Source of the DNA: Psammoneis japonica
Lineage: Eukaryota
Direction of reading: 5' to 3'
Assembly: GCA_008632985.1 (NCBI GenBank)
Contig: QPGO01000254.1
Location: 62,001 to 89,309, forward strand
Length of the DNA stretch: 27,309 nucleotides
Numbering within the stretch: position 1 is the first letter of the stretch; each line of letters opens with the position of its first letter. The notes under the pieces are model-generated. The model made no database searches. It had not been told where the DNA came from and was given only the letters and a program-made list of their open reading frames with translations. Positions 4,035 to 27,309 of this stretch are shown here, piece by piece. Made by a program: the position numbers and the translations under genes.

Positions 4035-4319
4035 TAAGGAAGGAGCATTTTGTTGTAAATAATATTTGCTTCCAACCGCGCTATGTAAATAATCAACCAA
4101 GTCGTGCTAAAAGCTAAACAAGAGGACAAAGCTAAGAAGCACGTACACGCTAAATTAATAAATTACAATCTACATGCAACTCAAACTCCCATTCGTCTAT
4201 TGTATGAAGGTAGGAAAGGGCTGGAGGGCCGACATACAACAGGTCCTGACTCCTCCTACCTCTGATGCCTTTTAGCTCGTATTTGCACAAAAAGCTCGTG
4301 ATTTCATAACCGTGAGTAC

Positions 4320-5599
4320 CTTGGGCATCGCTGGGCATCATCGTGCACGCCACAAAACCATGTGTCACACGTGATCTGTTTCCGAATCATCAAGCTTTGT
4401 TGTCCATGCCACATTCTCTGTTGGCACTCTGAGTCCTTGCTCACATTGAAGAATGATGAGGACACAGACACATGTTCCCGCTCGTGTTCCCCCCCCCCCC
4501 CCCCCCCTCACAGATCTCATGCAACAAAAAAAGAGATTGGCTCCAGCCGGGGGCATTGCACCACCTCCACACAAACAAAAGTTCTGACTTGCAAACAATC
4601 TTTGACACAATGGAGAGAAGCCTTGCAAGAGAAGAAATGATGAATTGGGTTCACATGTTGTGCGTTCATTTTCATCAGTTGTTGCGACAATTGCAGTGCT
4701 GTGCTTTTCCTTGCTGTTGCTTTCCTTGTGGAGTTTCTCTTTGCAGGTCACACAATGCCATGCATTGTTTCCAATGAGATCACTTGTTGTGTCAGCCTGA
4801 ACCGAGCACTGCTGCTCTCTTGAGTGGAGCCAGAAGACATCTTGAGTTGGTTAGAAGTGCTCTGATTTTTGGACAAGTTAAAGCTCACCTGCTTGCTGCA
4901 ACGGTTTGAAAACATGCTCTGTTTCTGCAAACCAAAGTTTGCCCTTGGTGCCCTCACCAGTTTTCTTCTCCTTGGCAAGCAGCACATGCAACATGAACAG
5001 AGGAGCCTTTTTTGTGCTTTTTGATTCAATTTTTTTGTTGCAACAGCACTTGCACCTTCAAATTTGGTGCTTGATGAGAGAACACAGCCTCTTCTGACAA
5101 GCACTCTGGCAAGAACACAAAATGAGCTGGTCAAAAGAACAATGACTCTGATGGACATCAGCTTCTGAAACAAGCCATTTGATTCATGACCCACCCACAA
5201 ACTTGCTTTTGAGGTGTGTTTAATTTTTGATGCACAAAGAGTGCAAGACAAACAAAAGAGTTGGTGGACAAACACCATCTCCACTGTCAGCACACTCCTC
5301 TGAATCGCCCAAAGTTGCGGTGCTGTGATCGCATGTTGCAAGCAGCACTGTGAACTTTTTTGGCAGATCATTGTGAAAGTGGTCTTGTCTTGGCCAGTGT
5401 TGCCATTGTGGCACTTAAACATGTCAAACAAGAACGACCCAAGATGTTGGATGCAAGTTGCCAATAATTGGAGCCACAGGAGACTGGCATTTGCAAAATG
5501 CAAATTGGAAATGTTTCCCTCTCCTCACAACCAACCCGCCCCTTCCGGTGGTTGTGTGTGTCGTGTCTCGTGTCACTCCGCGACCCAACCCGCCAGGCT
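4320..5599. mobile_element. TpA/CpG-depleted island, probably a hypermutated repeat or transposon relic of unidentified family
   Basis: Only 5 TpA in ~1.28 kb, few CpG in the core, Tyr-free ORFs, C19 run at 4489-4507. The composition is seen directly; TE identity is inferred. Confidence 0.55.
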
Positions 5600-5944: not shown

Positions 5945-7548
5945 ATGAAATCACTCGTGTTTTTTGTATTGTTGTCGCATACAACAACCATGGCGAAATC
6001 GCCGCTTGGCAGTGACTGCAATGTGGATTCGGATTGTGACAGTCGCAGCTGTGTCTTTGGACGTGGCACTTCTGGAAAATGTGTTTGTAACGAAGAAACC
6101 AACGCGGGTTGTAAAGACGGTCAAGAACAGTGCGCTATTCCACCCGGAGTTGCTGATGTCTTTGCCGAATGCTTGCCCATTTTTTGCCAACAAAATTCGG
6201 ATTGCTTCTTTACGGATCGGTGCTTCTTTCCGATGAATCGACCACTGGATGCTCCGGGAACGTGTCAATGCAATTCAAAAACACATATCGGTTGTGAACC
6301 GCCCATGATTTGTTCTGATGAGGATATATTAACCGAGGGTGGATTACCAAAGTGTAAAATTCCAGACGTGACGCCCGGATCGTGTTTGCAAAATTCGGAT
6401 TGTATCGAAACGAATCGTTGCTTTTTCGGCTTTAAATCACCCAGCGCGGCAGGAACGTGTCGGTGCAATTCAAAGACAAATGCCGGTTGTGAGCCGCCCA
6501 TGATTTGCACCGATGAGGATTTGGCATTGGATGGATTTCCCCGTTGTAAACTACCAACGACAGAGCCGGATTTGTGTTTGCAAAATTCGGATTGTACCGA
6601 AACGAATCGTTGCTTTTTTGGATTTCAACCACCCAACACACCGGGAACCTGCCAATGCAATTCGGAAACCAATGCGGGTTGTACCGAACCCTATTTTTGT
6701 ACCGACGTGGACATGGCCTTTGACGGACCGCCTCGATGTGCACTAGCCGTGGGAGAATCCTGTGAAGAGGAAAAGGAGTGTGAAACCAAGCTGTGCTATA
6801 AAAACTTTTTGGTTCCAGGCATGTGTATTTGCAATATGGAAACGCACTTTGGTTGTGCCGAGGGAGAAAAGTGTTTGCCGAATCCAACCATGGCCGATGT
6901 CCCACCGTCGTGTGTTGCGGACGAAAAAGAAGAAACAAGCAAAAAGGCTGGTATTGGCGAAAATTGTCAAAGCAACGACGATTGTGCCACGGAGAGATGT
7001 TTTTTTGGAGAACACCCGACGATACACCCGGCACGTGTCAGTGCAACGCAGAGACCAATATTGGTTGCGACCCGCCCCTGGTGTGCTCGGACGGGGCAAC
7101 TGCGGTGGATGGTGAGCCTGTCTGTACCATTTGTGGCAATCCCGAGGATTATTGTGTCGGTATGGACAATTGGATGGACTGTCGAGATTTGGAAATGACG
7201 GGATGTGACGTTGTTCAAATTGAAAAGTCGTGTCCGCTTCAGTACGAGTGCGTCGATTACAAAACGCCGTCTCCGACACCCTCTGCAACAACCGTACCAG
7301 ACAATAGAGAGACGCCACCACCGGTTGGATCGACAGACACGTCTCCTCCGACCGTTTCTATGAGCATGGCAACGCCTCCTCCGACCGTCTCTATGGAGAC
7401 GCCAACATCTCCTCCAACCGTAACTATGGAGACGCCAACACCTCCTCCAGTGGACGATCCAACCCAATCTCCGTCCGAAGCCAACACGATTCGACTGCCA
7501 CTTGTCGTGTTTTTATTCACTCTGCTTTTTCTCATTTCAGTAGCATGA
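5945..7548 (+). CDS. Secreted Cys-repeat protein 1 (~534 aa after repairing a 1-nt deletion at ~7011-7017); Pro/Thr stalk; GPI-like or TM tail
   Basis: Signal peptide MKSLVFFVLLS...; repeated 8-Cys modules (C-x4-DC-x4-CFF...GTC.CN..T..GC); METPT/PPTVS stalk; tail LPLVVFLFTLLFLISVA. Confidence 0.85.
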
Positions 7549-10450: not shown

Positions 10451-13400
10451 ATGAGTTTTGTCCTCCCGCTAGTAATGGCAGTCGTGGCACTGTTTGTCGC
10501 GTCCGCAGAAGGCAATCTACTAGGCATCGGTCAAGATTGTGTTGGTCATTCCCAATGTGAATCTGGTTTGTGTCTGAAAGGCGCTCGGAAGCTGGGAAGC
10601 TCTGGTACTTGTCAATGCAACGTTGTGACGAATGGTGGCTGTAACGATGGAAAAAACTGTACCAGTGTCCCTTCTGGAACACCGATTTGTACAGCGTGTG
10701 GCGATCCACAGGCACCCTGTATGGAGAATTGGAATCACTGTCGTGAAATGGAACTCAGTGGATGTTCTTCCATCATTGGGGATGACAAGTGCTCCGCTAG
10801 GCTTTGCTTGTGGGGACGTCGGAGACTCATTGACTCAATTGCTACTACCTATTGGAGCTCCGTGTAACTACGACGACTCTAGTTGTGAGACTGGGCGATG
10901 CTTTTTCAGCTGGACGACTCCAGTGCCGGAATGTTCCTGTGACGTGATAACGAATTTAGGATGCCCATCTGGTTCAGAATGTGCAATCAACATTGTGGAT
11001 GATGGACCTCCTTTCTGTGCCCTTCCGGATGGAACAGCCTGTGAAGAAGGGCTGCAGACAGACTGCTCGGTAAATAGCCCTACTTGCTGCAAATCTGGAA
11101 TTTGTTCCGGCGGTGTGTGTGTAGTAGCACCTCCGTCGCAACTTGGATACAGTTGTAGGGAAAACTCTGACTGCGATACGGGTTACTGCTATCACGGCGA
11201 AAAGCCTCCTTACACCGCTGGAACATGTCAGTGCAACCCGTCGAATGACGCTGGCTGTTCGGGGGATCTCAAGTGTAAATTCAGTACGATCATTGCAGAC
11301 CTTGCTCCGTTCTGTGGATATCCACTAGGCGCTACTTGTACAGTCAGTTCTGCGTTCGAGTGCGCTTCAGAAAACTGCTACAAGGGAACTTGTCACTGTA
11401 ATCCGAATTTCGTGAACACAGGATGCCTTTCAAGTCAAGAGTGCGTCGGCGATGAAACCGTTGGGTACCACTGCCAAGACCCTCCTACATTACCGGATCC
11501 TGATACTGACACCAGTCCACCTACGCTTGCTCCCGCGACCGACCCGTTACTGCCGATTGGTGCTCCGTGCGATTTCGACGACAGTGTCTGTAAAACAGGC
11601 AGATGCTTCTCCGGATATACGTCAGATTCGGTATGCTCGTGTGACGTGGAAACGAATGCGGGTTGTCCTTCTGATTTAGAATGCGCCATTAATATTATCG
11701 ATAGTGGTGGTCCTCCGCACTGTGTCATACCAGACGGTGAAGCTTGTGCAGAGGATCGGCAGGAGGATTGCTTGACAGGTACTTGTTGCAAATCAGGCGT
11801 ATGCTCCGGTGGCGTGTGCGTCGAGGCACCTCCATCCCCATTAGGATACAGTTGCAGGGAAAACTCAAACTGTGACACTGGATTTGTTATCACGGCTTCA
11901 AGCCTCCTTATACTGCTGGTTCGTGTCAGTGCAATCCGTCGACTGACGCTGGCTGCTCGGGAAATCTCGAGTGTACAGTTAGTACGGTTGTTGCAGACAT
12001 TGCTCCATTCTGTGGCTCTCCAATAGGTTCTGTTTGCACTGTCGGCTTTGATTTCCAATGTGCGTCAGAGAACTGCTTCAAGGGAATCTGTGAGTGTAAT
12101 CCGGATATGGAAAACACCGGTTGCCCTTTAAGTCAAGTTTGCGTCGTCGATGAAACCGTTGGGTACCAATGTCAAGACTCTCCTATATCACCGGCTCCTG
12201 ATGCTGACACCAGTCCACCTACGCTTGCTCCCGCGACCGACCCGTTACTGCCAATTGGTGCTCCGTGCGATTTCGACGACAGTGCTTGTGAAACAGGCAG
12301 ATGCTTCTCCGGATACACGTCAGATTCGGTATGCTCGTGCGACGTGGAAACAAATGCGGGTTGTCCCTCTGGCTTAGAATGTGCCATCAATATTGTCGAT
12401 AGCGATGGTCCTCCATTCTGTGTCATACCGGACGGGGAAGCTTGTGTGGAGGATCAGCAGACAGATTGCTTGGTAGATACTTGTTGTAAATCCGGCGTCT
12501 GCTCCGGTGGCGTGTGCGTCGAGGCGCCTCCATCCCCATTTGGATACAGTTGCAGGGACAACTCAGATTGTGACACTGGATTCTGCTATCACGGCTTTAA
12601 GCCTCCTTATACTGCTGGTTCGTGTCAGTGCAATCCGTCGACTGACGCTGGCTGCTCGGGAAATCTCGAGTGTACAGTTAGTACGGTTGTTGCAGACATT
12701 GCTCCATTCTGTGGCTCCCCAATTGGTTCTGCTTGTACTGTCGGCTTCTATTTTGAATGCGCGACAGAGAACTGCTACGCGGGAATCTGCGATTGTAATC
12801 CTAATTTGGAAAACACCGGTTGCCCTTCAAGTCAAGTTTGCGTCTCAGATGAAACCGTTGGGTACCAATGTCAAGACCCGCTTATATTACTACCGGCTCC
12901 TGATTTTAGCACCAGTCAATCGACTTCTGCTCCCGACCCTTCGACTACAACGCTGCTGCCCATTGGTGCTCCTTGCGATTTCGACGACAGTGCTTGTGAG
13001 ACAGGCAGATGCTTCTACGGATATACGTCACTAGAATCTGTATGCTCGTGCAACGTGGAAACGAATGGGGGGTGTGCGTCTAATTTGGAATGCGTCAGCA
13101 ACATTGCGGAAGACAGTGGCTCTCCATTTTGCGCCCTTCCTGATGGGGAAGTATGTGTAGCAGATCAGCAAACAGATTGCTCGTCAGGTACTTGTTGCAA
13201 ATCTGGTGTCTGTTCAGGTGGTGTATGCGTGCCAGCACCACCATTGCCATTTGGGTCAAGCTGTCGCGACAACACCAATTGCGATACGGGGTATTGTTAC
13301 CACGGCTACAAGCCTCCAGATACTCCTGGCTCGTGCCGGTGCAACCCGTCGACCGACGTTGGCTGCTCAGGCGACCTTAAGTGCACATTTAGCACCCTTT

Positions 13401-14631
13401 TATCGGATTTCGCTCCGTTCTGTGGTTCTCCAATTGGTTCGACTTGTAACACGGAGGCTGAGTTTGAATGCGCATCAGAGAATTGCTTTATGGGAACCTG
13501 TCAGTGTAATCCGAATTTCGTGAACACAGGATGCCTTTCAGGTCAAGTTTGCGTCGGCGTTGAAACCGTTGGATACCAATGCCAAGACCCACCTACATTA
13601 CCGGCTCCTGATGCTAACAACAGTCAGCCTACGCCTTCACCTGCACCTGACCCGTTGAATACTACATTGCTACTGCCCATTGGCGCTCCATGTGATTTCG
13701 ACGACAGTGTCTGTGAGACGGGCCGATGCTTCTCTGGATATACGTCAGAATCGGTTTGCTCGTGCGATGTGGGAACCAATGCAGGATGTCCTTCTGGTTC
13801 CGAATGTGTTATTAACGTTTCGGAATATGATGGTTCTCCATTCTGCGCCCTTCCGGATGGAACAGCATGTGTAGCAGATCAGCAAATAGATTGCTCTTCA
13901 GGTAATTGTTGCAAATCTGGCGTCTGCTCAGGTGGTGTATGCACGCCAGCACCACCGTCGCCCTTTGGGTCAAGCTGTCGAGACAGCACCGATTGCGATA
14001 CGGGGTATTGTTTCCACGGCTTCAAGCCTCCAGATACTCCTGGCTCGTGTCAATGCAACCCGTCGACCGATGCTGGCTGCTCAGACGATCTCAAGTGCAC
14101 ATTCAGCTCCTTATTCTTGGATTTTGCTCCATTCTGTGGTTATCAAATTGGTTCTACTTGTAGCACGGACGCTGAGTTTGAATGCGCATCCGAAATTGCT
14201 TCATGGGAACCTGTCAGTGTAATCCGAATTTCGTAAACACCGGATGCTTTTCAAATCAAGTTTGCGTCGGCGATGGAACCGCTGGGTACCAATGCCATGA
14301 CGTTGTTTCCCAACCAGCTCAGGAAGCTGGATCCATTTCACCTTCACAGGCTCCTGTTTTCATCTCGGAGGTACCTACACTATCAGTTGAATCAAACGTA
14401 CCTTCTGACATGCCTACAAAGGCTCAATCCAATGTACCTACAAGTGCACCTGTTTCGACATCCGTTGCACCTACACAAGTTGGTTCCAGTGCACCTTCAC
14501 CTTCGTCATTTTCTATCACAAAGACAGCGAACAATCTAGGTATTGATGACGAATCGGCAGCCCCGTCAAGTTCTACCATCTTGTTTGGATGCACTTTTTC
14601 CATTTGCTGTGCCATTTTCTTTCTAGCCTAA
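10451..14631 (+). CDS. Large secreted Cys-repeat protein 2 (~1393 aa after repairing frameshifts at ~10780-10793, ~11884 and ~14194); five 30-Cys units; Ser/Pro/Thr stalk; GPI-like tail
   Basis: Signal peptide MSFVLPLVMAVVALFVASAEG; sister units show exactly which base is missing at 11883-11885 and 14193-14195; tail ILFGCTFSICCAIFFLA. Confidence 0.87.
10842..14300 (+). repeat. Five intragenic tandem units of ~700-717 bp
   Basis: Units begin with LLPIGAPC at ~10842, 11547, 12245, 12953 and 13670. Confidence 0.92.
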
Positions 14632-16534: not shown

Positions 16535-17007
16535 GTTGAGCTGTTTTTGAGAAAGGTAGTTTTGTTTGTGAGAACATGAACGAAGCTGATCGGCACGAGA
16601 GGGTTCGCATCAAAGGCCAAAAAATGAGGGACCGTGTCACGTTTTCGGAGAAAATGTGAGACCCTAATTTCTCCGTTTTATCCATTTCTTTAATTATGTC
16701 TAAAAGCTAATGTTTTTAGTCGTGATCGCTAGTCACGAATCAATCCATGACCAGCGAGAACCGATCGATCTTCGCGCGACTTTCAGACTGCGCCCGTTCA
16801 AAGTTCACACGTCCCTTTTTTCTCTTGCTTCAAAACAAACCAACAGCGACGGTGTTGCAGCAGCCGCAGCAACAACGAACAGCGTCACGTCTCATCAAGA
16901 ACAAAAAGCCGCCATAGGTTGACACAATTTCTCAGAGTCTACTGGTGACTGTCCTTGAGGAAATACCCTACAAAAAGTGTTAAGAGGAATTTTTATTGTG
17001 TCTTACC

Positions 17008-19140
17008 ATGAATTTGCAGCATCTCCCCGCTACCCTCCTCATTGTTGTTGCTCTCCTCTCAACAACAACAACAGTTTTTGCTCAAGAGCCCATTGGATCG
17101 GTATGTCGACAAGATTCTGATTGTGAAACGAGAGCTTGCTTTTTTGGTTTTGAAAACGAAGGAGTTTGTACCTGCAACACGGATACAAACCAAGGCTGCT
17201 CCAGTCCTGCGACTTGCAGTATTGACATTTCACAGCCAAGTCCGGCACTGCCTCCGTTCTGTGCCTTGCAAGAGGGACAGCCTTGTGATTTACAACAACA
17301 AGGATCCGATTGTTTCTTGACAGAACAATGTTGCAAGGGCAAATGTAGCACCGACGGAGGAATTTGTAAAGCATATATTCCTCGACCGATTGGAGAAACA
17401 TGCGGCATAGCTTCGGATTGTGATTCTAATTTTTGTTTTCGATCCATTCAACCTGCCGATACACCGGGACGTTGTCAATGCAATGTCAATACCAATGCGG
17501 GTTGTCCTCCCAATGAGAATCGCACGTGTCAATTTTTTGAATTCTTTGCCGATGGACCTCCGGCCTGTGCGCTTCCCATGGGTGCCGCGTGCAATGACAC
17601 AAGAGCGTTGGATTGTGACACGACGGTTTGTTGGAATGGGACCTGTCAGTGCAACATCAACTTGGTCAATTTGGGATGTACGGGTGATGACGTTTGTGTT
17701 GGTGACGAAGAGGTGGGGTATACCTGTAAGGATACGTCCGAACCGGTTGGTGAACTCTTGCCGATTGGAGCGGCTTGCCAAGAAAAGTCAGAATGCGTTA
17801 GCGACTTTTGCTTTGTTGGTTTTGGAGACGGCGGCGTGTGTACGTGCAACCCGCGGCTCAATACTGGATGCAATACTGGAACCGAGTGTGTTGTTGGTAT
17901 TTCCGAATCATCGTCAGCTGTCCCTCCCTATTGTGCTCTCCCAGATGGTGCTGCGTGTAGTGAACCGGCTGTAGATACCGAGTGCTTTCTTCAAGACGGT
18001 GGTTGTTGCCGAGGAAGTTGTTTGCAGGATGGAACCTGTGAAACAATCTCCAATTTACCGTTTGGATCTCCATGTCGCATTAATACAGACTGTGAAAGCA
18101 ATGTTTGCTTTTATGGCTTGATCCCTCCCGGCTCGCCGGGAAGCTGTCAATGCAATGTAGATACCAACGTTGGTTGTACGGGTGGTCGTACGTGTACATT
18201 TGTGGAGACTGTGATGGATGCACCAGCCTTTTGTGGATTACCTATTGGGGCAAGTTGTGATGCTGAAAATCCATTGGACTGCAGTTCAACTCAGTGCTTC
18301 AACGGAACATGCCAATGCCACAAGGACTTCAACGCCGGTTGTGCGGAAGGGCAGGTTTGTGTGGGTGATGAAAATACCGGGTATACCTGTAACGACGATA
18401 CGTCCGAGCCAGGAGAAGGCTCACCGATTGGATCAGTATGCAAACAAAACATGGATTGTTTAAGCGATAATTGCTTTTTTGGTTTTGGAGACGGCGGCGT
18501 TTGTTCGTGCAACACAAGGCTCAACACCGGATGCAATAGTGCGACCGAGTGTGTTGCTGGCATTTCTGAATCAAGGGCAACTGTGCCTCCCTATTGTGCT
18601 CTTCCGGACGGTGCTGCCTGTCAGCCACCTGCTCCAGATACCGAGTGTTTTCTTCAGGATGGCTGTTGCCGAGGAAGTTGTTTGCAGAACGGGACTTGCG
18701 AAACAGTTTCTGCTTTATTACCGGTCGGTTCAACATGTCGCGAAGATGCTGACTGTGAAAGCAATGCTTGCTTTTTTGGCTTGGTCCCTCCTGGTACACC
18801 AGGAAACTGCCAATGCAACCTGGACACCAACGATGGTTGCACCAGTGGCCGCACCTGTACTGTCTTGCAGTTTTTGCCAGACGCGCCTCCCTTTTGCGGC
18901 TTGCCGGTCGGGGCAACGTGCGATCCTGAAATTACCCTTGACTGTAGTACAACTCGGTGCTTCGAAGGCACATGCCAATGCCTTGAGGAATTCAACGCGG
19001 GGTGTAGTGAAGGACAAGTTTGTGTTGGAGACGAAAGCACGGGCTATTCATGCACCTCGACGTCCGCAACCGCCACTCTTCGTCCTACAAGCTATCTCCT
19101 GTTTCTATGTGTTTGTTTGGCAATGATAATAATTATGTAA
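17008..19140 (+). CDS. Secreted Cys-repeat protein 3 (710 aa, intact); three 30-Cys units; GPI-like or TM tail
   Basis: Signal peptide ending TVFA|QEP; units start at ~17089, 17761 and 18424; tail YLLFLCVCLAMIIIM. Confidence 0.9.
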   Translation: MNLQHLPATLLIVVALLSTTTTVFAQEPIGSVCRQDSDCETRACFFGFENEGVCTCNTDTNQGCSSPATCSIDISQPSPALPPFCALQEGQPCDLQQQGSDCFLTEQCCKGKCSTDGGICKAYIPRPIGETCGIASDCDSNFCFRSIQPADTPGRCQCNVNTNAGCPPNENRTCQFFEFFADGPPACALPMGAACNDTRALDCDTTVCWNGTCQCNINLVNLGCTGDDVCVGDEEVGYTCKDTSEPVGELLPIGAACQEKSECVSDFCFVGFGDGGVCTCNPRLNTGCNTGTECVVGISESSSAVPPYCALPDGAACSEPAVDTECFLQDGGCCRGSCLQDGTCETISNLPFGSPCRINTDCESNVCFYGLIPPGSPGSCQCNVDTNVGCTGGRTCTFVETVMDAPAFCGLPIGASCDAENPLDCSSTQCFNGTCQCHKDFNAGCAEGQVCVGDENTGYTCNDDTSEPGEGSPIGSVCKQNMDCLSDNCFFGFGDGGVCSCNTRLNTGCNSATECVAGISESRATVPPYCALPDGAACQPPAPDTECFLQDGCCRGSCLQNGTCETVSALLPVGSTCREDADCESNACFFGLVPPGTPGNCQCNLDTNDGCTSGRTCTVLQFLPDAPPFCGLPVGATCDPEITLDCSTTRCFEGTCQCLEEFNAGCSEGQVCVGDESTGYSCTSTSATATLRPTSYLLFLCVCLAMIIIM

Positions 19141-19575: not shown

Positions 19576-21680
19576 ATGACATCAACCGTGATGGGACGCG
19601 ATGAAAGCTTGAAGTGTCGATCGGGTGTGACACCCACGCGACGAAACGCTCTCCACCAGGCTGATTTGGAGTGGGCTTCACGCGGTGATGGTTGGTGGAG
19701 TCCGTTGTACCAGGCATTTGTCAATTTCATAATGTTGATCACCTTGATACCACTCAATGTGCTGATCCTTCTTCTCGCGGCCTGGCCACTAGTTTTGAGC
19801 TATCGCATGAAGGTAATGTCCCTTGATTCCATTCTTTACCTGATCTTGACGTATGTGTTTGCGCGGGTAGTGCTACTATACCTTCAGCCCGACGAGGATC
19901 CAAAGGACAGTGTTCCTCCAAAAGAGAAACTAACAGTTGCTGTGATCGGTGCGGGCCCAGGTACGTAATCGACTTCAACGCGTCACCTTCTACAACTCGC
20001 ATATCTCACTGGCACGTCTTCTGCTGCTACTTTTTGAAAGCTGGTTTGGTGACAGCCAAAGAGTTGATTGCCGAAGGTCATGTACCCGTGGTCTTTGAAC
20101 AGAGCTCTGCCATTGGCGGAGTCTGGCAGCGAACTGGAAAGCAGTGCGGCCGAGGACAAGCTCTTGCAAACACAATGACCTCAAGCTCAGCATTAAACAC
20201 GGCCTTTTCGGACTTTCCCATTCAAGCCGAGTATCCAGGACCAGATCCCTACTTTGCGAGTCAAGAAGCCTTCATGGACTATCTTTCAAGGTATGCCAAG
20301 TACTTTGGAGTTGATCAGTACGTCAAACTCAACACGAGTGTGAAGGAAGTTACAAAGATGAAGGACGGGCGATGGCAGATCAAGACGGTGCAGACAAGCA
20401 GCAAAGTCGAAAATGTGCAGGAGTTTGACAAAGTAGCTGTCTGCTCTGGGCAAACAGCTGTTCCAAGGATTATTAAGTTTGAGGGTCAGGATAATTTCAA
20501 AGGAAACATTATCCATTCGTCCGAGCTTTTTGATGAAGACGATTTTGAAAGGTTCAGAGACAAACGGGTCTTGGTGGTTGGAGGCGGGGAGACCGCGTCA
20601 GATGTTGTCTTGGATCTCTGTGACAAGGTAAACGTTTGTGACGTGTCACTCCGAAATCCGCTTCAAGTTCTACCGCGGAGCATGTGGGGACTTCCACCTG
20701 ACTATTACGAGACCCGTGTTCTCTATCAAGCACCTCGTTTTGCTCGCTGGGCAACCTACAAGCTCGTCATAGTGACCACCGCCTTCTTCAACAACGCGTT
20801 TGCTCGTCAGTATGGAGGCAAAATGCTTTGGGCTCCATCCATCTGGTGGAACCTACGGTTACTCTTCACCAAAAAATACATATCTGAATGCTTGACAGGT
20901 GTGAGAACGATTTGCTCATCGGTCCAAACCACCAAGAGCGACAACCTTGTCTTTGCGCTGAGTCAGAACAAAGAGAAGTGCAGCATTCGAAGTGGTGTCA
21001 AATGCATCAACAATGATGGAGCGGTTGTTCTGGATGACGGCAGCATACAGCAGTACGATGCCATTCTGCTAATGACGGGATATCAGCCGTCAAAGTTTCC
21101 ATTCCTTCCGAAAGCGCACATGACAAATAAGGTATGTGAACGGTATCTTGGAGTATTCCACCCGGATCTTCGAGACATGGCATTCATTGGCTTTATGCGA
21201 GGACAAGTGGGCTCCCTCATTATGGGTTTTGAAATGCAGGCACGCTGGTTTGCCTTGATATGTTCCAAGAAGAGAAACCTTATCAGTGAGGTAGAGATGC
21301 AAGCCCATATATGCGAGTCAGCGAGGACTCATTACTGTTACAACGCCACGTCAGGTGTCTGGTTTTATACAAACTATCTTGCTCGCCACTGCGTCGGCTG
21401 CGAGCCAAACTTCGTGAGGTTCTTCTTGCATGCTCCTGTGGCCTGTGTCAAGGCTTACTGCTCCCAATTTGCCGCATACCAGTTTCGAATGCGTGGCCCT
21501 CACTCCGACCCTCAGTCAGTGGTGGATGGTTATGCTCTTTCCGACGGTATCATCTACATGCTACCCGCCTGGCACTGTCTCGATCTCTTGTGGGTACTTC
21601 AGGGCTTTTGCTTTGAGGTCTGGGGTCTGATTCCGGGTCTAGCAGTGTATCTGGCACCGCTTTTGAGTCAATGGACCTGA
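19576..21680 (+). CDS. Flavin-containing monooxygenase (class B FMO, ~674 aa) with N-terminal membrane extension; intron 19961-20040
   Basis: VAVIGAGP|AGL across a GTACGT...GAAAG intron; GGVW; FMO signature FKGNIIHSSELF; NADPH site VVGGGETASD; TGY; EMQARW. Confidence 0.92.
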
Positions 21681-23580
21681 GCAAGGTTGTAGCCGGGGGA
21701 ACGTTGCAACGATCCAGCCAACTGCATAAATTGTTGCTGGCATGTGTTAGGATGCGACGTTCCCACCCTAGGTACATGTTTTCCCTTCAATTCATTCTAG
21801 TGCATAATTTCATAAGCCACTGGTGAATGAACAAACTCATCTTGTGCACTTATGTGAGTGCGTCTATTGACATTTGGTAAAAGCAGACTTGACAGCAAGT
21901 CTCGGTGCCTTCCCTTCAACACGACGACAGACTTCTGGATGAAAGGGACTTGGGACTTGGAAATCTGGTGTTTGCGAATTTTACGGGTGGGGCACAAGGC
22001 GCCGTTATTTTGATGCCATTGCAAAAGCGGCCTTGTTTAAATTGGATCTGCATGCATTTTTCCAACACTGCCACCCAACACCACTGACTTGTTTCAAGTG
22101 GCAAGCACCTGAGCTTCTCCATGTGAGCATGCTGTTGTGGAGTCCAAGTTTCTGAGGCTTGTCTTTGATGGGCAAGGAACCTCCAGGTCCTCACCATGCA
22201 AAGACCCAACTAAAAAGCATGCTGGCAGCACTCACTGCTTTGATCCCCCCTTCTCTGCAAGAGCTGTTGGCACCACCTGGCCAGTTTTGGTTGGCATGTG
22301 CAGCAAGACTGTGGTTGAGTGGCACCCAAAGCAGGAGACTGCTGCAGCATGTGAAAAGCTGATTGTGTGGAAATGTTCTGGGGTTGTCATGAAGTGACGT
22401 GGCCAAATTTTATGTTGTTTTGATGTCAGGTCATTGTGCAGTGGTGCTTTGATGTCTTTTTCTGCTTGAGACATGCACTCAGTCAGACATTGTCAGAGAA
22501 TTTTTTCCATTGTCACACTTTGGCAACAGTGCAGTGGCTGCATTGAATGATGCCATTTTCTTGTTCTTGATGAGTGCAAGCTTGTGCTCACACACAACAC
22601 TTTGACAATGGTGCCATGATGCTGGCAAGTGCGGCAAACAAAAGCAAGGAAAGTGGAGTTCAGCATTGTTGCACAAACACCTGATGCAACCAGCACATTG
22701 TGTTGGTTGGTTCTTGTGCAAGAAATGCAGCTCACCATCTTGCTGCCTGCCATGCCTCACCCTCCTTGCCCAGCATGAACTAAAAAAAATTGCAGCACAG
22801 AAAACACACATTCTGTTCCCACCTTTTCTGAAGTGTGTGTGCAAAAAACACCCACATCTTGTTTGAAGAGAAGCAAACTTCTTCTTTCTTTGCTCACATC
22901 TCAGCATGAGCACACCCACACCACAGTGTTTTTGCATGGGGCAAGTCAACAACAAGCGCAAGCAAGGGGGGAGTGACAACACACATGTGCCTTTGGCATC
23001 TTGCTTTTTCATTTCTGTGTTGGTGGGAAAGCCACCTTTGTCTTGGAAGCTCCAGCTTTTTCATGTGGCACAGATTGCTGTCTGGCTGGCTCTAAAACAA
23101 ATTTTGTTTGCAGACAACACAGCCAAGAAAATGTGCAAGCACAGAGCTGGGCACCCAAAAGCTGCTTCATCTGGGACACCAAAAATCTGGGTCTGACTGT
23201 CTGCCACAATCTGGGAATTTCTTGACTGCAATCCCAGATTGTTGCAAACTTGCTGCAAGCCAAGTCCTCCCCCAAATGCAAGATGAGAACCACACAAGTT
23301 CACAAGCTTCTAAAGTCCAAATTGCTCCCCACTTTCAAGTGTGAACCTTTTTGCACATGACCACAATCTTGACCCCTGTTGACATTTGCAGTTCCTTGTT
23401 CATTGAACACTTTTGTTGCTGCTCACAACCCACCCTCCTTGTCTGCAATTTGCATTTTGTCTCTTTGCTTTGTTGTTTTAAAAGCCAAATGTGCAACTGC
23501 CACATGTTCTTGAATTTGAATTGCTTTGCAGAATGCCTTTTTTTTGTCATCTGGATTTTGTTGTTTCCTGCAATTTGCGT

Positions 23581-24530
23581 TCACACACCAGTTTGGTTGG
23601 TTGCCATGGCAGCAATTGCTTCTGCTTTGTTGCTGGCAGCCACCACCTGCAATGGCAGGTCCTCTCCCATTGGCGCTGCCCGTCCTTCCTCTCTCTTGTG
23701 TTTTTTGTTTTCCTCCCTGGACAAGTTTGTCTTCTCTTGCCTTCTCTCCTTGAGCCATGCACCAAATCCTTTGTTGCTCTCTTGGTCTTTCACCACCCAC
23801 TCACACAGATCATTGCACTTTTTGATCCCCTCCTTGCTCCATCCTTGGCTCCTCTTTGCCAAATCCCCCACTGCCTGTGCCATGCACTTTGCAGGAGCAG
23901 CATCCTGCACTGTCAGCTTCCTCCTCCTTCCAATGTCATTTTCCTTTTCCAATTTCTCTGCTGTGTCCATCACCTTGTTGCAGCAGCTCAAGTGCTCCAG
24001 CAGAGCAAATGCCTTGATGAAATGGAGAGCCACTCTTGGAGCAAATTGGCTGTGCTTCCACCAAACTGTGCTTGTCCCACCACAGTCTGCACCAGAGTTT
24101 CTAAGAACCACGTGCACGTGTCTTTGTCAGCTCTCTTCCCTTTGTCAAATCTTTGCACTTCACCAGCAGCAACCCCTCTAAAGCAGCAGCTGCACAGATG
24201 AAATCAATGGAAGTGACACTCAACCCATCAGACAATCCCCTCCAACACACTTGAATGCGCGCACATTGCTGCTTGCCTGTCATCCTCCTCCTCATGTTGT
24301 CCTGCACATTGTTCCTCTTGCGGTTGAGTTTGGTTCTGAACACCTCTCTGCATTCTTCCCAGAATGCCTCTGGCAAAGACACCATGCTCCTCAACTCATG
24401 CAGAACCGTTTTCATGAAATCTTTTCCTCCAGCCATTTCTTTGTTGAAGATTGTGAACTTGTGATGCAGCAAAACACTTTCATTGATTGCCTTTGCCAGC
24501 ATGGACCCAGTCAATTTCTTGCCCACTGCT
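23581..24530 (-). pseudogene. Decayed two-exon gene of unknown function (relic intron 24276-24190)
   Basis: FWEE(C>Y)REVFRTKLNRKRNNV; (C>Y)TWFLETLVQTVVG; AFALLE; AK(CM>YT); GWSKEGIKK(C>Y)NDL(C>Y)EWVVKD(Q>R); frameshifts between blocks. Confidence 0.6.
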
Positions 24531-26409
24531 GGAGCTTGATCCAACACATGGCAATGCTCCATGAGAGTCACCACTGAACTCAAGTCCCCACCCACAAACT
24601 GGAGTCGATTCAGCTCCCCATGTTTGTTTGTTTGTTTGTGCATTGAACAAGGCCGCCACCAGGCCGCAGGACTCATTGCAACTGTGTGTCACACCACAGC
24701 GGCAAATCACAAGTCATCAGTGCATCAGCATCTCTTTGTCATGCCCTTCTCAACCCAACTTGCTGCTCGAAGTTGTGCTTCCTCCCTCTGTTGCACCTGT
24801 GACAACTGTGTCCTCCATCATCTTTCCCTTCCCAACAGGCAGCTCTCTTGTGTTGCACTGTTGGCCTCATCTTGCCCGGTTCATGACAAGGAAAGTTGTG
24901 AAATGAACGCACTTTGCATGTGATTTTCTCTGTTTTCTCATTGCTCACGCATCCTCTCTTGATTCAAACAGGTGTTTGCATCATTTTTGAGCACTCATTT
25001 CCACCAACCCCATGTTTGAATGTCCATCAACCTTCCACTGTTTTGAATTGTGCTCCATTGCAAGCCAATCCAACACGCAAATGAAGATTGGCACACTCTT
25101 CAAATTAACCCCAAACACCACATTTTTTTCTCATTGTCACAAAACATGCACTCCACTTCTTTTCTGATGCAACATCAGTTTCACATGGTTCAAAATTTGT
25201 GCTTGACCCCACATTTTTTTTGTGCCAAACCACATGTGCCGTTGCCTCTTTTTCATTTGTTTGCAACTTGTTTGATCATTCCCTCTGCTTGTCTGATGCC
25301 ATCTCTCTCCACCAACCACTCTCTCCATCACCCAAACTGGTCCATTTCACATTGTGACAACACATGATGTGTGTGTGCAAATTCAGGAACGCACCTGTCC
25401 ACAATTTTGCACATTCTCTGTCACTCATCCAATGGTCACTGACACATCTCATTGTTGCTGAGACATGGCAGCAGTGAATTGCATCAACCACCAGGAACAT
25501 GCGTTCCCTGCATTGCCATCACATGCTGCCAACTAAGCATCAATTTGGTCATGTTGCTGGTGGCAGCGTGAGATCTCACTGTGGTGCTGCAAGCTTCAAT
25601 TTTTTTGCCAAGGTCATTTGTCACCCTGCACTCTTTGGCACTCAGACTCAAAGCCAGTTTAATTTCATCAATGTTGGTGGTGGTTGTGCCAGTTTTGCAA
25701 TTGCCTGTCATTTGCTTGTTCCATCCTGCAAGGCCTGCAGCATGGAGCTCCACAGTCCTTGTCACAACTTGGGCTGTGACTGGTGTGCTGGCATCTGGCC
25801 CAACTCTCCTGGCAGTCATCCTGCCCTGATCAATCAGTCATTCCTTGCTGAAGATGATGCAGTTTGCTGTTTGCACCATCAGAACAATGCCAAGATTTTC
25901 TTTGGCAACTGCAATGGGCTGGTGATGCTTTTTGGCAAGAATGGGACACAGAACCACCTTGAGGAGATTCTGTCCAATGAGTGTGCTGAAGGAACTGTTG
26001 TCATTTCATTTGACATGATGTTTTGTGGGTGCACCACAAATGGACGCATGCATCCTTTTTTGTTCCTGCCTGCCAAACCGATCTGTCATGGGGAGGCAGT
26101 GTCAACAGGCACCTCTTTCACAAGTGCACCAAAAAAAGAGATGGCGCCATCAAGCCAAAAGGCATTCCACTGGAAACAATCTTGCAATGGACATCAAATG
26201 AAAGTTCCACCCTTCCAACAACATGGGTGGCATGTTGCCATCTCATTTCCATCTGGCAACTCTTTTCCATTTGAACATTGTGTTGTCAGTCGCCATTTCC
26301 ACAAACTTGCTTTCTATGTTGACAAAGATGCTGCCTGCTTTTGATGACCAACAACTTCTTTTTTCTCTCACAATTGTTCACAAGACACCATGTGCTTGCA
26401 GCATCAAAA

Positions 26410-26715
26410 TTGTGGGCTGGACATGCCATGTTCCTTTGATCTGAGTTGGTTTTGTTTGGCAAAGCAATGTTCTAGCATCAAAAACAAATGATGCACCTGC
26501 TTCTCCCACCAACAATTGTTTTTCCAAACCCAACCCAACCAAGTGTCTTCATCATGCTCTTTCTCATTCAAAACCACCTTGCAACCATCCGGCCATGTCT
26601 CGATGGTGCCATTGTCCTTTGTGGTGTCGTCAAGGAACAGAAACATGGTGGACATTTTGTTTCCAGGAAACAACTCTGTTTTTCTGCATGATCATGATGC
26701 ATTTCCCCTTTGACC
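26410..26715 (-). pseudogene. Decayed 2OG-Fe(II) dioxygenase (PhyH-like) fragment
   Basis: Ordered motifs in shifting frames: GEMH(H>R)D; TMFLFLDDTTKDNGTIETWP; GEAGASFVFDAR; H(C>R)..LPNKTNSD(Q>R). Confidence 0.55.
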
Positions 26716-27274
26716 CGGTTGCTTTTTGTCCACGTCCTCCGCCAGTGGAAAGTCTGGAATGAAGTCCAACATTTTTCTGCCAACTCAATGCCTCCACCTC
26801 GTCCTTTTGTTTGCCAGCAAACTCTCTGACAAAATGGTGTCCTTCTTTATCCTGTTGTTTCTTGGTGCTTTGTTCGCCAGAGCAGCAATCTGGTTTGGCA
26901 AGAGTTGCAGCATTTTGAATTTTTGTAAGCAGCAATGCTGGTGAGCAGACTGGGAGGACATCAAAGTCCTCATCAGGGGCAACATGCCATGGCCAGTTGC
27001 AGAGGATTGTGTGGATCAAAGGAAGAAACTGAAACAGAGTCAACACCTGGGGAGGAGGAGCTGGCTCTTCCATCAGGCGTGACATCAAGGGTGGACCAAA
27101 ACTGCCATCAAGACATTCTGCTCCAGCGAACTCAGCAACATCCACAAGACTGTCCTCTCCAAGGGCAGACACACCATCATCTGCAAACAAGACAAATCGG
27201 CAAGAGTTTTCAGTGGCTGCACTGGTGGCAGCAACATTGGTGGCAACACGCAATCAACCAGGGCATCTGACGGA

Positions 27275-27289
27275 GGGGGGGGGGGGGGG
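27275..27289 (+). repeat. G15 homopolymer followed by TG
   Basis: ATCTGACGGA(G)15TGCAG read directly. Confidence 0.9.
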
Positions 27290-27309
27290 TGCAGACCATT
27301 TCCAGCAGA

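Follow-up and report, generated by a model that had tools for sequence, protein, structure and literature searches.

Surviving TpA sites in two TpA-stripped islands of a diatom-like genome suggest that TpA loss depends on the neighbouring base

Which TpA steps survive where a genome has lost nearly all of them, and what does their surroundings say about the process that removed the rest? The question is raised by a window of 27,309 nucleotides from the Psammoneis japonica assembly GCA_008632985.1 (contig QPGO01000254.1, positions 62,001 to 89,309; all positions below count from the first letter of this window). The window appears to be nuclear DNA from a diatom-like alga and holds two islands, called left and right here, that are stripped of both TpA and CpG (Table 1). 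A preliminary description, drawn from the letters of the window, had listed 15 surviving TpA at 22211-26927 and five more in the left island, and had proposed a mutator that hits TAY and spares YTAR (Y, pyrimidine; R, purine), acting in doses over both strands. We analysed the 27.3-kb window together with one public sequencing run. Our recount returned exactly the listed sites and an identical division into classes, with 15 YTAR, five sites that have TAY on one strand and no RTAY among the 20. YTAR accounts for 11 of the 15 survivors in the right island and four of the five in the left. Searches with blastn of island against island, within the islands and against the rest of the window found no similarity, and the 20 survivors can therefore be counted as independent places.

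The class composition of the survivors is the reverse of that in normal DNA of the window, where RTAY is the commonest class and YTAR the rarest. Of 765 TpA outside the islands, 117 (15.3%) are YTAR, 51.1% are mixed and 257 (33.6%) are RTAY; against this baseline, the probability of finding at least 15 YTAR in 20 is 4.2e-9. It is 6.2e-7 when only non-island TpA outside open reading frames (ORFs) of at least 150 amino acids are used (56 of 256, 21.9% YTAR). Survivor classes differ from the background as a whole (chi-square p = 7e-13), and in 20 one-kb background blocks the YTAR share never exceeded 0.28. The preliminary description had also raised the contrary case, that survivors are mostly new TA created by C>T at CpA. 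We therefore used the flanks of the CA and TG steps of the islands as a third baseline, representing TpA re-made at random. YTAR then makes up 21.2% and RTAY 24.5%, giving P = 4.0e-7 for at least 15 YTAR and P = 0.004 for no RTAY in 20, and the contrary case found no support in these contexts. RTAY-type sources (362) in fact outnumber YTAR-type sources (313), so that even re-creation would need a faster erasure of RTAY to leave none of them beside 15 YTAR. The context dependence of TpA loss is thus, with high probability, real.

We then modelled survival as exp(-(k[3' base, top strand] + k[3' base, bottom strand])), where the 3' base is that following the A of each half-site. The ancestral number of TpA for each flank pair was taken as the island pyrimidine-purine steps multiplied by the background TA fraction (about 241 in total), with four baselines: all background, outside ORFs, inside ORFs and flat. 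Two rates, one for purines and one for pyrimidines, beat a uniform rate (chi-square 43.6; likelihood-ratio test p = 4e-11), with kR = 0.38, kY = 2.97 and a ratio of 7.9 (profile confidence interval 4.1-21; 3.9-16.3 across the four baselines). The fit gives 15.2 YTAR, 2.7 YTAY, 1.9 RTAR and 0.2 RTAY, with 15, 3, 2 and 0 observed, and estimated survival is 0.46 for YTAR, 0.035 for YTAY, 0.043 for RTAR and 0 of about 79 for RTAY. An additive dose over the two strands, as proposed beforehand, hence reproduces the classes. Four separate rates improve on two (p = 0.009), at 4.1 for C, 2.4 for T, 0.8 for G and 0.03 for A. For this gain p is 0.002-0.019 with three of the baselines and 0.078 with the flat one; all four give the order C>T>G>A.

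The gradation is visible in sites that share TAA as the partner half-site. Six TTAA survive where 7.8 are expected and eight CTAA/TTAG where 13.2 are expected, as against three TTAT/ATAA of 31.8 and one TTAC/GTAA of 37.9. CTAG, although it is YTAR, survives only once where about 11.2 are expected; what had been called the sparing of YTAR is therefore really a sparing of TAA half-sites and, in part, of TAG. As a first approximation to a rule that is graded by the base after the A, the TAY/YTAR wording serves well.

The sites that were lost carry their own record of this preference. For about 220 converted sites, with the survivors left aside, we compared gains of TG and CA with the background expectation, in a product test that assumes CpG decay to be split evenly between the strands and that depends on the background model. 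A YTAY site presents TAY on one strand and TAR on the other, and a TAY preference thus predicts more YTGY than YCAY, even at saturation. Over all Y_Y flanks the fraction becoming TG was 0.78 (bootstrap 95% 0.52-1.08), and with T_Y flanks, where the partner is TAA, it was 1.06 (0.69-1.45). Sorted by the base after the A, 0.77 (0.61-0.93) of lost TAC became TGC, and the corresponding fraction for lost TAA was -0.20 (-0.74 to 0.26). The product test confirms that C is preferred and that A is refractory.

The composition of the islands describes the process further. The observed/expected ratio of TA is 0.04 in the islands and 0.56 in the other 20.5 kb, a 14-fold depletion, whereas that of TG/CA is 1.81 against 1.22; CG falls to 0.18 from 0.96. 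Pyrimidine-purine steps as a whole keep a constant share (1563/6551, 23.9%, in the islands and 5066/20549, 24.7%, in the rest), as expected of transitions that interchange TA, CG, TG and CA, and the rise in the GC ratio from 1.00 to 1.22 is as TAC>TGC and GTA>GCA predict. AA is not depleted (1.29 in the islands, 1.17 in the background), so the mutating process required a T 5' of the A. The two products are nearly balanced (722 TG and 756 CA), and both strands were therefore hit. The border of the right island is sharp and common to both depletions, with the last normal CG at 22028 and the last normal TA at 22038; that of the left island lies at 4318-4384. The two losses are uncoupled from site to site, in that 24179-25106 (927 bases) is without TA yet has 13 CG, and CpG depletion is probably a process separate from TpA erasure. 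As an observation on CpG itself, the 65 CpG surviving in both islands are skewed to GCG (41/130 half-sites, 20% in the background) and away from TCG (25/130, 28% in the background; chi-square p = 0.009).

The direction of change is given by the longest ORF of the right island. An exhaustive HMMER search with it found six relatives at E <= 0.001 (best E = 5.9e-15; 25-32% identity), two of which are named, from Bacillariaceae sp. and Cyclotella meneghiniana. They belong to a family of about 600 amino acids with an N-terminal DOT1-like S-adenosylmethionine-methyltransferase fold and a VDxGGG motif. Over 177 aligned core residues, the island ORF has no Tyr (2-7 in the six relatives), 15 Cys (2-5), 11 His (2-7) and two Arg (7-14). 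Loss of Tyr and Arg together with gain of Cys and His is the expected trace of TAY>TGY/CAY and of CGN>TGN/CAN in a dead gene copy. The relatives polarise the amino-acid composition; conserved Tyr columns were too few for a test of context.

In the right island, a single-copy stretch of about 1.07 kb precedes a repeat that is present in tens of copies. One 2774-base contig of sequencing run X1, at depth 61, matched 21000-23197 with 10 letter differences, none of which falls in the four TpA within 22039-23197. Over 23110-27309, 571 X1 contigs were aligned, mostly 85-95% alike, next to flanking single-copy DNA at depth 61. The stripped single-copy part, at the same depth as the neighbouring gene, could be an old unique relic or could record a process spreading from the adjoining multi-copy repeat. 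Of 143 letter differences between assembly and run, 40 are listed. At 22404-22405 (flank C_A) and 22661-22662 (flank T_G) the assembly has CA and the single-copy contig TG; these are two double changes, and there is no single change among the 10 differences of that stretch. A single ancestral TA (or CG) struck on one strand in one lineage or haplotype and on the opposite strand in another would look this way. Coverage by run X2 (30 million letters) is limited to 21000 to about 22690; its depth is in the thousands until about 22166 and then falls, as it would for a transcript of the FMO-like gene that extended some 130 bases into the island at its 3' end. No contigs of run X3 were placed.

Other searches for copies or unmutated relatives of the island gave no confirmed match. 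Pfam showed nothing above noise for 86 island ORFs (15 + 71), a word-index protein search with the ORF at 24101-24688(-) had no matches, a metagenome scan with the ORF at 23584-24126(-) gave 331 pattern matches of which none was confirmed, and a metagenome scan for an exact 28-base island stretch had no matches.

Our combined findings suggest that the survivors are probably the slow residue of a transition process acting on both strands, with a rate governed mainly by the base 3' of the attacked A or, equivalently, by the base 5' of the attacked T. In the two silenced repeat islands TpA would have been turned in place into TpG or CpA, the strands being hit independently and a hit on either one sufficing to lose the site. 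The rate would be highest with C after the A, high with T and lower with G, with A nearly refractory. RTAY, with two fast half-sites, would then be extinct and mixed sites nearly so, and TTAA and CTAA/TTAG, with two slow ones, would mostly remain. The need for a 5' T, the action on both strands, the border shared with CpG loss and the inclusion of single-copy DNA beside the repeat point to an in-place process on the DNA of silenced chromatin rather than to editing of transposon transcripts. The simplest chemistry, we infer, would be deamination of adenine in DNA, to hypoxanthine that is read as G, by a putative enzyme directed to repeat chromatin, and the CpG loss of the islands may be a parallel decay of methylated C.

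Several observations weigh against this interpretation. The sample comprises 20 sites, which both gave rise to the hypothesis and serve to test it. Ancestral counts were modelled from the gene-rich DNA of the window; our searches found no unmutated copy. Survival of CTAG (one of about 11) is lower than an additive model based on CTAA predicts. The product test gives no TAT > TAG order and leaves T and G unranked: the fraction becoming TG was 0.43 (0.21-0.66) for lost TAT, 0.66 (0.33-1.05) for lost TAG and 0.42 (0.01-0.81) for C_Y flanks, where the partner is TAG, and in Y_Y flanks the raw TG:CA ratio stands at 1.55 in the islands and 1.51 in the background. At 26848 the assembly has TTAT and the single-copy contig of the run has CA, and at 25025 (flank C_T) the assembly has CA and most repeat copies have TA. 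In both it is the T that varies, on the 'wrong' strand of YTAT sites, which is the minor product of the model, and the TpA at 26848 may be newly made. All seven CTAA of the right island read on the + strand, with none as TTAG (p = 0.016, uncorrected) and a purine as the next base in all seven, whereas a strand-symmetric process predicts no such bias. A strand-asymmetric process was not adopted, as both products are equally common overall and the non-palindromic TAA half-sites pooled from both islands stand at nine to three. Survivors also show a bias at the second base, with A after TAA in 13 of 24 half-sites against 31% in the background (p = 0.017). It reaches T at -2 and -3 (0.60, 0.53) and A at +2 (0.53 against 0.28), and the A+T content of survivor flanks is slightly raised (0.59 against 0.53, p = 0.04). 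The rule may thus be wider than one base or may partly reflect local DNA shape.

The bias beyond the immediate neighbour bears on a different account, in which a mutator without neighbour preference would have left TpA at junctions of T-runs and A-runs (TTTAAA-like) because DNA shape or a bound protein shielded them. The extended bias and the A+T-richer flanks speak for such protection. Against it, lost TAC shows that the A before C was the one hit, in a fraction whose interval excludes 0.5, which is a preference and not a shield alone, and three CTAA sites have C-rich 5' flanks; we consider protection highly improbable. Nearly the same low probability attaches to survivors being mostly TpA re-made from CA or TG by ordinary C>T or G>A changes. 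With 26848, at least one right-island survivor out of 15 is polymorphic and possibly new, but the CA and TG flanks predict far fewer YTAR and more RTAY than are seen, the four TpA of the single-copy part are identical in an independent contig, and a re-made RTAY would still need faster erasure than a re-made YTAR. That the elements never had TpA outside YTAR, or that base calling or assembly failed at modified bases, is extremely unlikely. The ancestral state is modelled, with no unmutated copy recovered, and the library type of the run is unrecorded; however, normal one-kb blocks hold at most 28% YTAR, pyrimidine-purine steps are kept while TA and CG vanish, Tyr and Arg of the relic ORF are replaced by Cys and His, and contigs of the public run reproduce the stripped sequence. 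Very short patch (VSP) repair depletes CTAG in E. coli, and a VSP-like, misdirected T:G mismatch repair was set aside here, since CpG loss would not be expected from it and the flank would differ.

The remaining alternative concerns the chemistry. The same context-biased erasure could result from an attack on thymine, for example by oxidation or modification of the T in 5'-RTA followed by T>C, for which the rule would read G-T-A > A-T-A > C-T-A > T-T-A. A-directed and T-directed chemistry leave the same footprint, a further point against reading adenine as the target: a TA>TG change reads as TA>CA on the complementary strand, and the two products are about equal. We found no positive evidence for thymine attack, and the available text of a preprint on Bigelowiella (10.64898/2026.01.13.699255) argues for adenine deamination, also by inference alone. 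Thymine attack seems unlikely, and we retain adenine deamination as the simplest chemistry in what follows.

Outside the islands, the window holds the FMO-like monooxygenase ORF upstream of the right island and further long ORFs with FG-GAP or Cys-rich tandem repeats. The three sets of Cys-rich repeats, all within long ORFs, have a 40-base core containing CxC in common and no Pfam match; these ORFs look like a secreted repeat protein family. A C run at 4484-4515 in the left island and a G run at 27265-27296 in the right form 32-base inverted arms that are 78% complementary, and could be a common element end in opposite orientation or two homopolymers.

Table 1 Features of the window, with the surviving TpA of both islands.
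Feature	Positions	Strand	Details
Left TA/CG-stripped island	4318-5599	.	1282 bases, 5 TpA
TTAG survivor	4852		left island
TTAA survivors (3)	4879, 5221, 5416		left island
ATAA survivor	5465		left island
Cys-rich tandem repeats, first set	6190-7100		period ~192 bases
Cys-rich tandem repeats, second set	10600-14350		period 698-714 bases
Cys-rich tandem repeats, third set	17000-19100		period 663-672 bases
FMO-like monooxygenase ORF	20034-21680		best named relative from the diatom Seminavis robusta, 48% identity
Right TA/CG-stripped island	22039-27309	.	5271 bases, 15 TpA, ~42 CpG; continues past window end
Single-copy part of right island	22039-23109	.	depth 61 at 31-letter level; fully TA/CG-stripped
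Multi-copy part of right island	23110-27309	.	summed contig depth up to ~2,600 per bin, ~4,000 at single places
CTAA survivors (7)	22211, 22781, 23093, 23311, 24102, 24179, 25534 (span 22211-25537)	+	right island
TTAT survivors (2)	22411, 26848		right island
TTAA survivors (3)	23479, 25106, 25660 (span 23479-25663)		right island
CTAT, CTAG and GTAA survivors	26315, 26473, 26926 (with TTAT 26848, span 26315-26929)		right island
Longest island ORF	25478-26341	+	288 codons; relic of a diatom gene family

How does this erasure compare with known systems? Repeat-induced point mutation (RIP) of Neurospora and other ascomycetes is confined to repeats, acts by transitions over whole domains and kills transposons, converting CpA to TpA so that TpA is enriched. 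The islands resemble its products in being a repeat-confined, domain-wide transition hypermutation with a dinucleotide target. The polarity, however, is opposite, as TpA is removed (0.04) and CpA/TpG are enriched, which involves the other base pair and presumably another enzyme.

A closer likeness comes from Bigelowiella natans, for which the available text of a preprint describes a hypermutation restricted to TpA in the integrated DNA of giant viruses and virophages (Mettrop et al., bioRxiv 10.64898/2026.01.13.699255). It reports 231 de novo TpA mutations, arising about 1000-fold above background, with A>G or T>C in 210 of 211 changes in the region of nucleocytoplasmic large DNA virus (NCLDV) origin and in 20 of 20 in the virophage region. 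For recent changes of this kind, the present window offers as hints only the two CA/TG double differences and one TA/CA difference between assembly and run. In both organisms changes are confined to TpA, which becomes TpG or CpA on either strand, although in our window this is read from composition and not from observed mutations. Both cases also involve foreign or silent DNA with domain borders, which here leave the neighbouring genes untouched, and the long-term footprint described there, of scarce TpA and abundant CpA+TpG, extends to its transposon-derived genes. The cases differ in that the host is a rhizarian there and a diatom-like stramenopile here, in that the TA ratio reported for its viral region is 0.45, far above that of our islands, and in that G:C pairs are spared there whereas the islands here are depleted of CpG too. 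The main text of the preprint does not contain the words context, trinucleotide, tetranucleotide, flanking or diatom. Full-text literature searches for TpA hypermutation in diatoms gave no description among the matches listed. As far as these sources extend, Bigelowiella is the only organism for which TpA-only hypermutation has been described in print, and the main text of that preprint states no neighbour rule.

Among adenosine deaminases, the preliminary description had pointed to TadA, which edits the A in a UAC context. The parallel holds for the fastest context here, TAC: enzymes of the TadA/ADAT2 type, which act on A34 of tRNA and in bacterial mRNA editing, convert A to I at an A after U or T, and the native UAC(G) motif of TadA matches that context. 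It does not extend to the strict requirement, since TadA is described as needing the full TACG in a loop, where a C>T change at +1 abolishes editing (PMC12255301), whereas in the islands TAT (k 2.4) and most TAG were erased besides TAC (k 4.1). The substrate here would moreover be DNA, with both strands hit, and the resemblance is limited to the fastest context. Hyper-editing of double-stranded RNA by ADAR enzymes is alike in producing clustered A>G changes and in favouring a 5' U (cited in 10.64898/2026.01.13.699255). In the islands, however, AA is undepleted, so that a 5' A is unused, and TAG is among the spared half-sites (11/40 among survivors, 20% in the background). For ADARs, an A on the 5' side is acceptable as well, and G is preferred on the 3' side. 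In addition, both strands are equally hit, 1.07 kb of single-copy DNA is included and the sharp border is common to CpG loss. ADAR-type editing fits worse than a TadA-like activity.

It is conceivable, if doubtful, that diatoms and chlorarachniophytes share an old, chromatin-directed defence in which a DNA adenine deaminase rewrites TpA in invading or repeated DNA; such an enzyme would be derived from TadA/ADAT2 and freed from the need for a tRNA loop, as the fingerprint T-A-C > T-A-T >> T-A-G > T-A-A may hint. The fingerprint is the most direct handle on the enzyme and can be compared with the in-vitro preferences of candidate deaminases. It can serve to separate TpA erasure from ordinary mutation in any algal genome, and can be checked against the 231 published de novo mutations of Bigelowiella. 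A rule common to two such distant algal lineages would favour a single ancient defence system over two accidents. Base-editing work would also take an interest in a natural enzyme able to deaminate adenine at TpA of double-stranded genomic DNA; if it exists, such an enzyme would be nature's equivalent of laboratory adenine base editors and would mirror fungal RIP.

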